Shown one piece after another: positions 5,155 through 5,560 of a stretch of 64,000 nucleotides of DNA; within the stretch, counting starts at the first letter, position 1, and every line of letters begins with the position of its first letter. The stretch lies in the NCBI RefSeq assembly GCF_051903065.1, contig NZ_CP178438.1; one strand, given 5' to 3'. Position numbers and translations under genes: made by a program. Origin of the DNA: Escherichia coli (lineage in GTDB: Bacteria; Pseudomonadota; Gammaproteobacteria; Enterobacterales; Enterobacteriaceae). The notes under the pieces are model-generated. The model was given only the letters and a program-made list of their open reading frames with translations. It was not told the DNA's origin and ran no database searches.

Positions 5155-5560
5155 GCTACTGTGCCTAAAATGTCGGATGCGACGCTGGCGCGTCTTATCC
5201 GACCTACGGGGACGCATGTGTTGGTCACATAATGCGTTCATGTCGCATCCGTCTACTGTACCCAAAATGTCGGATGCGATGCTGGCGCGTCTTACCCTAC
5301 CTACGGGGAGGCATGTGTTGGTCACATAATGCGTTCATATCGCATCCAGCTACTGTGCCCAAAATGTCGGATGCGATGCTGGCGCATCTTATCCGACCTA
5401 CGGGGAGCGCATGTGTTGGTCACATAATGCGTTCATGTCGCATCCAGCTACTGTACCCAAAATGTCGGATGCGATGCTGGCGCATCTTATCCGACCTACG
5501 GGGACGCACGTGTAGGCCGGATAAGGCGTTTACGCCGCATCCGGCAATGGTGTCCAAATG
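5155..5560. repeat. Tandem array of four ~98-bp BIME-like units ending in a canonical REP palindrome
   Basis: Units begin at about 5155, 5253, 5350 and 5448 (period 97-98 bp), each with a GTCGGATGCGATGCTGGCGC..TTATCCGAC palindrome; canonical REP GCCGGATAAGGCGTTTACGCCGCATCCGGC at ~5515-5550; sits between convergent norW and hypF. Confidence 0.8.

Follow-up and report, generated by a model that had tools for sequence, protein, structure and literature searches.

What fills the 419 bp between the convergent genes norW and hypF of Escherichia coli? Here we examined this gap in a stretch of 64,000 nucleotides from contig NZ_CP178438.1 (the window, to which all coordinates refer unless stated otherwise). 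norW runs on the + strand from 4017 to 5150 with its TAG stop codon at 5148-5150, according to the ORF list and to the PGAP annotation of NZ_CP083585. This complete genome is 100% identical over window positions 4950-5760 and was used to assign both genes. The coordinates of hypF, located on the - strand at 5570-7822 (stop codon at 5570-5572), were transferred from it. PGAP called zero genes within the gap of NZ_CP083585. With respect to the start of hypF, the mechanically derived ORF begins with GTG at 7894 (774 aa) and PGAP in the identical genome starts at 7822 (750 aa, 2,253 nt).

The gap is filled by a tandem array. Tandem Repeats Finder (TRF) reported a single array at 5155-5542 (no strand assigned) with a period of 97, 4.0 copies, 90% matches, 0% indels and a score of 620. 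An independent seed-and-extend repeat search also returned four copies, with start-to-start spacings of 97, 97 and 98, i.e. a period of 97-98. Units 1-3 were identical to each other at 88/97 to 93/98 positions. A 24-nt internal motif matched three times in the window compared to 0.00 matches expected from shuffles. A first-pass annotation of this DNA had described four head-to-tail units of about 98 bp between convergent norW and hypF. It had further noted a REP-like palindrome in each unit and a canonical REP at the end of the array, and had used the label BIME-like. All of this withstood the analysis: number, spacing and location of the units were as described, a z2-type REP was detected in four of four units (with strong folding in units 1, 3 and 4 and a degraded copy in unit 2), the terminal REP is canonical, and a unit of one z2 REP and one inverted y REP joined by short linkers, as in REP325, justifies the label. 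A second REP in each unit had been overlooked. It is of the y-type, has the opposite orientation and is decayed in the three internal units.

The unit thus is composed of a z2 REP, a 12-nt spacer, an inverted y REP and a 15-nt linker, and this layout is repeated four times. The z2-type REPs, GTCGGATGCGAYGCTGGCGCRTCTTATCCGAC-CTAC, are on the - strand at 5172-5207, 5269-5304, 5366-5401 and 5464-5499. The z2 core was matched at 24/24 positions in unit 1 and at 22/24 or 21/22 positions in units 2-4. The hairpin of unit 1 is intact (-20.8 kcal/mol, z -5.2); its GTAG on the - strand corresponds to CTAC at 5204-5207 on the + strand. Intact hairpins are also present in unit 3 (-19.4 kcal/mol, z -5.5), where a compensatory U-A pair replaces C-G, and in unit 4 (-19.4 kcal/mol), the stem of which is that of unit 3. 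Hence, these three z2 REPs fold with -19.4 to -20.8 kcal/mol at z-scores below -5. The z2 REP of unit 2 is weakened by two stem substitutions which change ATCCGAC into ACCCTAC (-9.5 kcal/mol, z -1.1). One z2 base pair forms a compensatory series across the array, C-G in unit 1, U.G in unit 2 and U-A in unit 3. As the only compensatory pair it was too sparse for covariation of the z2 hairpin to exceed shuffle controls.

The array ends in an intact y REP on the + strand at 5512-5545, GTAGGCCGGATAAGGCGTTTACGCCGCATCCGGC, i.e. GTAG (5512-5515) followed by GCCGGATAAGGCGTTTACGCCGCATCCGGC. It agrees with the y consensus at 33/34 positions, folds with -20.9 kcal/mol (z -2.5) and is the sole canonical y of the array. 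The corresponding REPs of units 1, 2 and 3 (+ strand, 5220-5253, 5317-5350 and 5415-5448; designated y*) have the sequence GTTG-GTCACATAATGCGTTCATGTCGCATCC. With 9 or 10 substitutions per 34 nt, they have lost the GTAG box and the stem. The y* regions fold with -9.8 to -13.2 kcal/mol at z-scores of -0.6, -0.05 and -0.7 in units 1, 2 and 3, respectively, which is not better than shuffled sequence. When 17 units were compared, the ancestral y helix was 61% paired in y*, and three of its 11 pairs were never formed. Strong palindromes consequently exist at four of eight REP positions, the z2 REPs of units 1, 3 and 4 and the terminal y. The z2 and y consensus sequences used here were checked against REP325 and against an exact y copy at 12821-12854 of the window. 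An inverted z1-like REP (12871-12895) lies 16 nt past this copy, and single z2-type REPs are located at two other sites, 56235-56270 and 62737-62773. Immediately past the terminal y, at 5551-5575, a segment overlapping the hypF stop (CCAAATGCAACACGTTTTATCC) aligned weakly to the z2 half of the Rfam model naRNA4; this may be what is left of an additional z2 REP.

Which class of REP element is this? A BIME-2 is defined by z2 and y REPs that are separated by short linkers, repeated several times in tandem and variable in copy number among strains (Ton-Hoang et al., PMC3333891). In the norW-hypF gap 4.0 copies with a 90% match are arranged in tandem. The orientation alternates: read on the + strand, CTAC closes each z2 copy, and GTAG or GTTG opens each y or y* copy. 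Because this definition fits and because order, orientation and a near-identical period are those of REP325, we are highly confident that the norW-hypF element is a BIME-2-type REP array of four [z2, 12-nt spacer, inverted y, 15-nt linker] units, with the qualification that the internal y REPs are dead. The TnpA-REP protein needs a GTAG/CTAC tetranucleotide at the foot of a REP (PMC3333891). This tetranucleotide is retained in all four z2 REPs and in the terminal y, and it is GTTG in the three y*. An intact REP/iREP pair is thus absent from the units with a decayed y*. Because three of four y REPs are not functional palindromes, 'atypical' or 'decayed BIME-2' is a more accurate label than textbook BIME-2.

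A BIME-1/RIP-type element, that is an IHF binding site, would be the other obvious assignment. A y REP is indeed present, BIME-1, RIP and RIB elements share with the array a location at 3' ends of transcription units, and IHF binding was among the possibilities raised in the first-pass annotation. Yet the IHF consensus WATCAANNNNTTR had no match in 5100-5600; the window holds just three matches, all at 38-46 kb. The y REP is paired with a z2-like REP instead of a z1, and the linkers of 12-15 nt contrast with the long L motif of BIME-1 elements, which moreover occur as single copies and not in tandem (PMC3333891). Lacking z1, a long L linker and an IHF consensus, the array is very improbable as a BIME-1, and the suggestion of IHF binding found no support here.

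The repeats generate an open reading frame of 153 aa on the + strand (5232-5693 in the ORF list), which runs through the array and into the antisense strand of hypF. The first-pass annotation had dismissed it as spurious, with good reason. For a genuine gene of a repeat-containing protein one could point to the ATG start and to 153 open codons. However, the product had no Pfam match, the ORF was not called by PGAP in the identical genome and over its 3' third it overlaps hypF in antisense. The frame is open only because two units add up to 195 nt, i.e. 65 codons. It is destroyed in alleles with zero to two units, that is in almost all other genomes. We therefore attach next to no probability to a protein-coding function, and a false gene call of 153 aa is removed.

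The first-pass annotation also expected that the copy number differs between strains and asked for a comparison of E. coli genomes. This was carried out with 5,426 complete genomes, 5,425 of which contained the norW-hypF flanks. Copy numbers were derived from match spans, from counts of the y* junction and from fetched loci. An artificial 10-unit query was uninformative for ranking copy numbers since overlapping pieces were joined and two-unit genomes reached 100% coverage. The expectation was confirmed: the gap ranged from 77 to 517 bp, equivalent to zero to five units. A gap of 77 bp has no BIME (e.g. DG342-2); this sequence was found in 683 of the 5,426 genomes (12.6%). One unit corresponds to a gap of 127 bp and was assigned to about 2,770 genomes, K-12 included, as the remainder after the other classes. 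Two units (221-225 bp; e.g. FORC_028, MNCRE44 and UM146) were present in about 1,870 genomes and three units (324-325 bp; e.g. Combat11I9 and Res13) in about 40, both numbers being solved from junction counts. The window allele with four units (419 bp) was detected in 53 genomes as a full 811-bp match in a single piece, and five units (517 bp; VCSW8) in at least one genome. The y* junction occurred at 2,123 places in 1,970 genomes, with one to four per genome, all chromosomal, and across the 5,426 genomes it was confined to the norW-hypF locus. The sole GTDB species representative with the junction was Escherichia sp. E1V33, whose array comprises three units. In E. coli, units at this locus number from zero to five, which makes it a variable-number tandem repeat.

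Tandem repeats of about 100 bp are prone to mis-assembly from short reads, and the four copies might be the product of mis-resolved repeats. This is contradicted by an allele of exactly the same length in 53 independent complete genomes. Four such alleles were compared base by base and displayed the same order of distinguishable units, and the units differ among themselves at diagnostic positions. An artefact thus is exceedingly improbable.

The allele without a BIME was inspected in DG342-2 (positions 402-478 of the fetched locus, the allele of window positions 5151-5600). Its gap contains a different GC-rich hairpin, CTCCCTCGCCC-AAA-GGGCGAGGGGA, and also what appears to be the 3' half of a y REP (TTACGCCACATCCGCCA). 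HypF ends with ...AAARILHAA in this allele, a changed C-terminus. Hence, the polymorphic segment extends into the last codons of hypF.

How did the alleles originate? Between units the copy number would change by unequal homologous recombination or by replication slippage. The mosaic composition of units among alleles is consistent with unequal exchange. K-12 has one z2 and one intact y and no y*, and compared to it the window has three added [y*-z2] blocks (+292 bp). The single unit of K-12 is equivalent to a fusion of the 5' part of window unit 1 with the 3' part of the terminal unit, with the exception of one base at 5509 (C in the window, T in K-12). Four other four-unit alleles, which are accompanied by different norW/hypF protein alleles, have the identical order of distinguishable units. 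Judged by this common order, the four-unit form probably has a single origin, after which it spread or persisted. Compared to the common four-unit allele, the window allele is changed at 5475 and 5484, positions which pair with each other in the z2 stem, so that units 3 and 4 now have the same stem. Either gene conversion from unit 3 to unit 4 or the loss of a unit by a five-unit allele like that of VCSW8 offers the best explanation. An independent compensatory mutation is disfavoured because the changed stem is exactly that of unit 3.

The y* REPs are common to different E. coli lineages and to another Escherichia lineage with only one to three differences, thus y* is old. The three-unit allele of E. 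coli Res13-Sevr-PER07-33 closely resembles that of Escherichia sp. E1V33 (2000-2320 of the fetched locus) unit by unit, and both carry a further decayed second y* (CACATACAGC). The near-identity suggests either an old common polymorphism or introgression.

What is the array good for? The likely role is the generic one of REP and BIME-2 elements, an exonuclease barrier at mRNA 3' ends combined with a gyrase site or supercoil barrier. In the RNA, the first hairpin encountered would be z2 for the norVW transcript and y for the hydN-hypF transcript. This hairpin would block 3'-to-5' exonucleases and attenuate read-through. Gyrase cleavage is far more frequent at y than at z2 (PMC6379681), and as DNA the intact y would be a gyrase target. 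BIME-2 elements have been proposed as topological barriers and tend to sit between supercoiling regions (PMC10592627). Similarly, the norW-hypF element would constitute a supercoil barrier where positive supercoils accumulate between convergent operons. Convergent genes would be a setting in which both roles, at the mRNA ends and in supercoiling, make sense. A literature search for the norW-hypF locus yielded no expression, 3'-end or gyrase-cleavage data; the accessible parts of the supplements to the Topo-seq paper did not mention norW, hypF or ygbD, and those to the TnpA-REP paper held nothing on this locus.

Two further functions of REPs were considered. A scan of the gap returned no intrinsic-terminator-like sites; on the - strand, the z2 hairpins precede a run of just four U residues. 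Because a canonical intrinsic terminator is absent from the gap, a role in termination is no more than putative. REPs less than 16 nt past a stop codon stall terminating ribosomes according to the rule of Liang, Rudd and Deutscher (2015), as it is quoted in PMC12306157. The norW stop is separated from the z2 stem by 21 nt and the hypF stop from the y stem by 24 nt, beyond the range of translation-regulating REPs. Every allele with a BIME has the same outermost z2 and y, and additional units consist only of z2 and a dead y. From this constancy it appears that the extra units probably add little function and are near-neutral. They are probably neutral products of unequal recombination.

A different reading would be that the array is a multi-copy sRNA locus, in which each unit yields an RNA like the naRNAs or like C0664 that binds HU or acts in trans, the copy number setting the dosage. 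The candidate sRNA C0664 presumably maps to the norW-hypF gap of K-12, although papers mentioning C0664 supplied no coordinates for it; the K-12 copy of the locus is a catalogued REP element. REP325 is the source of naRNA1-6, and the Rfam family naRNA4 (RF02564) was derived from a REP325 unit. This model aligned to every unit of the array over its full length of 77 positions, which also supports the resemblance to REP325. All scores were below the gathering threshold of 59.5 bits, i.e. 33.8-43.3 bits for the units and at best 52.0 bits for the terminal y, and the alignment flagged the Y helix as non-pairing in the internal units where the hairpin is broken. At the gathering threshold no naRNA4 was found in the whole window. 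Another Rfam family did exceed its threshold elsewhere in the window: the sok antitoxin RNA (RF01794) at 55199-55356 on the - strand with 111.7 bits compared to a gathering score of 59, which indicates a hok/sok-type toxin-antitoxin locus. The annotation of NC_000913.3 has no RNA feature in the norW-hypF gap. From the literature, the sRNA reading can draw on the report that REP325 units are transcribed and bind HU (PMC4550694) and on the inclusion of C0664 among REP-containing sRNAs without a known function (PMC12306157). On the other hand, overexpression of C0664 had no phenotype in a biofilm and motility screen (PMC4606813). A scan for sigma-70 promoter-like sites in the gap was negative, y* folds no better than shuffles and the element is missing from more than a tenth of the genomes as reported above. 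Taken together, an sRNA locus is unlikely, and we retain the reading as a BIME-2-type array with a generic role.

The uniformity of the y* substitutions deserves a comment. The spacer and the 5' half of y* can form an alternative 12-bp hairpin at 5208-5241, and equivalent stretches are present in units 2 and 3. Four of the four y to y* substitutions at stem positions of this hairpin improve pairing with the spacer, and the folding energy changes from -5.2 kcal/mol, when this hairpin is imposed on an intact y, to -12.7 kcal/mol with y*. Across 17 units the hairpin was 94.7% paired. As a conserved structure it was rejected: no compensatory change was observed, each departure breaks a pair and the z-scores were insignificant. 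The pattern of substitutions is compatible with a quasi-palindrome template-switch mutation and could have arisen in this manner; population variation gives no support for it. It is a long shot that the internal units are not mere decay and are instead such a template-switch product, or a selected unit which can be amplified without adding cleavage sites for gyrase or TnpA-REP. If this were true, zero to five copies would tune a barrier to supercoils or to read-through, or else the amount of a C0664/naRNA-like RNA, between an NO-detoxification operon and a hydrogenase-maturation operon. Decayed y REPs in a BIME-2-type array remain our preferred reading.

The array explains the apparently 'empty' gap of 419 bp; otherwise its significance hardly extends beyond housekeeping. 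As a repeat with zero to five copies it could serve as a typing marker in which the four-unit allele sets apart about 1% of E. coli. The alleles also form a natural series of zero to five units with at most one live y REP each. This series is usable to separate effects of copy number from those of the outermost REPs and could probe mRNA 3'-end stability, insulation of convergent transcription and recruitment of gyrase.

Finally, the array was compared with known repeats. Descriptions of REP and BIME arrays, of the classes they fall into and of their polymorphism in copy number date back to the 1990s (PMC3333891). A literature search yielded no paper which combined 'norW', 'hypF' and 'tandem repeat'. 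Unit size and copy-number variation among strains are similar in the VNTR loci ms11 (96 bp) and ms32 (101 bp) used for MLVA (PMC8215070). Identity with the E. coli/Shigella MLVA loci ms06 to ms32 was rejected because none of the 14 primers of the seven-locus panel matched the window with up to three mismatches. Among the closest counterparts are BIME-2 arrays such as REP325 between yjdM and yjdN. The fetched locus has a period of 100, 5.8 copies and 96% matches, and its unit consists of GTAG-y, a 13-nt linker, z2-CTAC and a 17-nt spacer. Like REP325, the norW-hypF array is intergenic and has y and z2 REPs in alternating inverse orientation, a tandem period of about 100 bp, a locus-specific sequence and a strain-variable copy number. 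The linker sequences differ; the head-to-head linker has 15 nt compared to 13 nt in REP325 and the tail-to-tail spacer 12 nt compared to 17 nt. The z2 stem is GTCGGAT/ATCCGAC at norW-hypF and GCCTGAT/ATCAGGC in REP325. Every y of REP325 is intact, whereas three internal y REPs of the norW-hypF array are decayed, with GTTG for GTAG, and one z2 is weakened. The feature therefore is an ordinary element of an already known kind. It is mildly unusual in the uniform decay of its internal y REPs and in the 12-bp hairpin that the spacer can form as a result of these substitutions.
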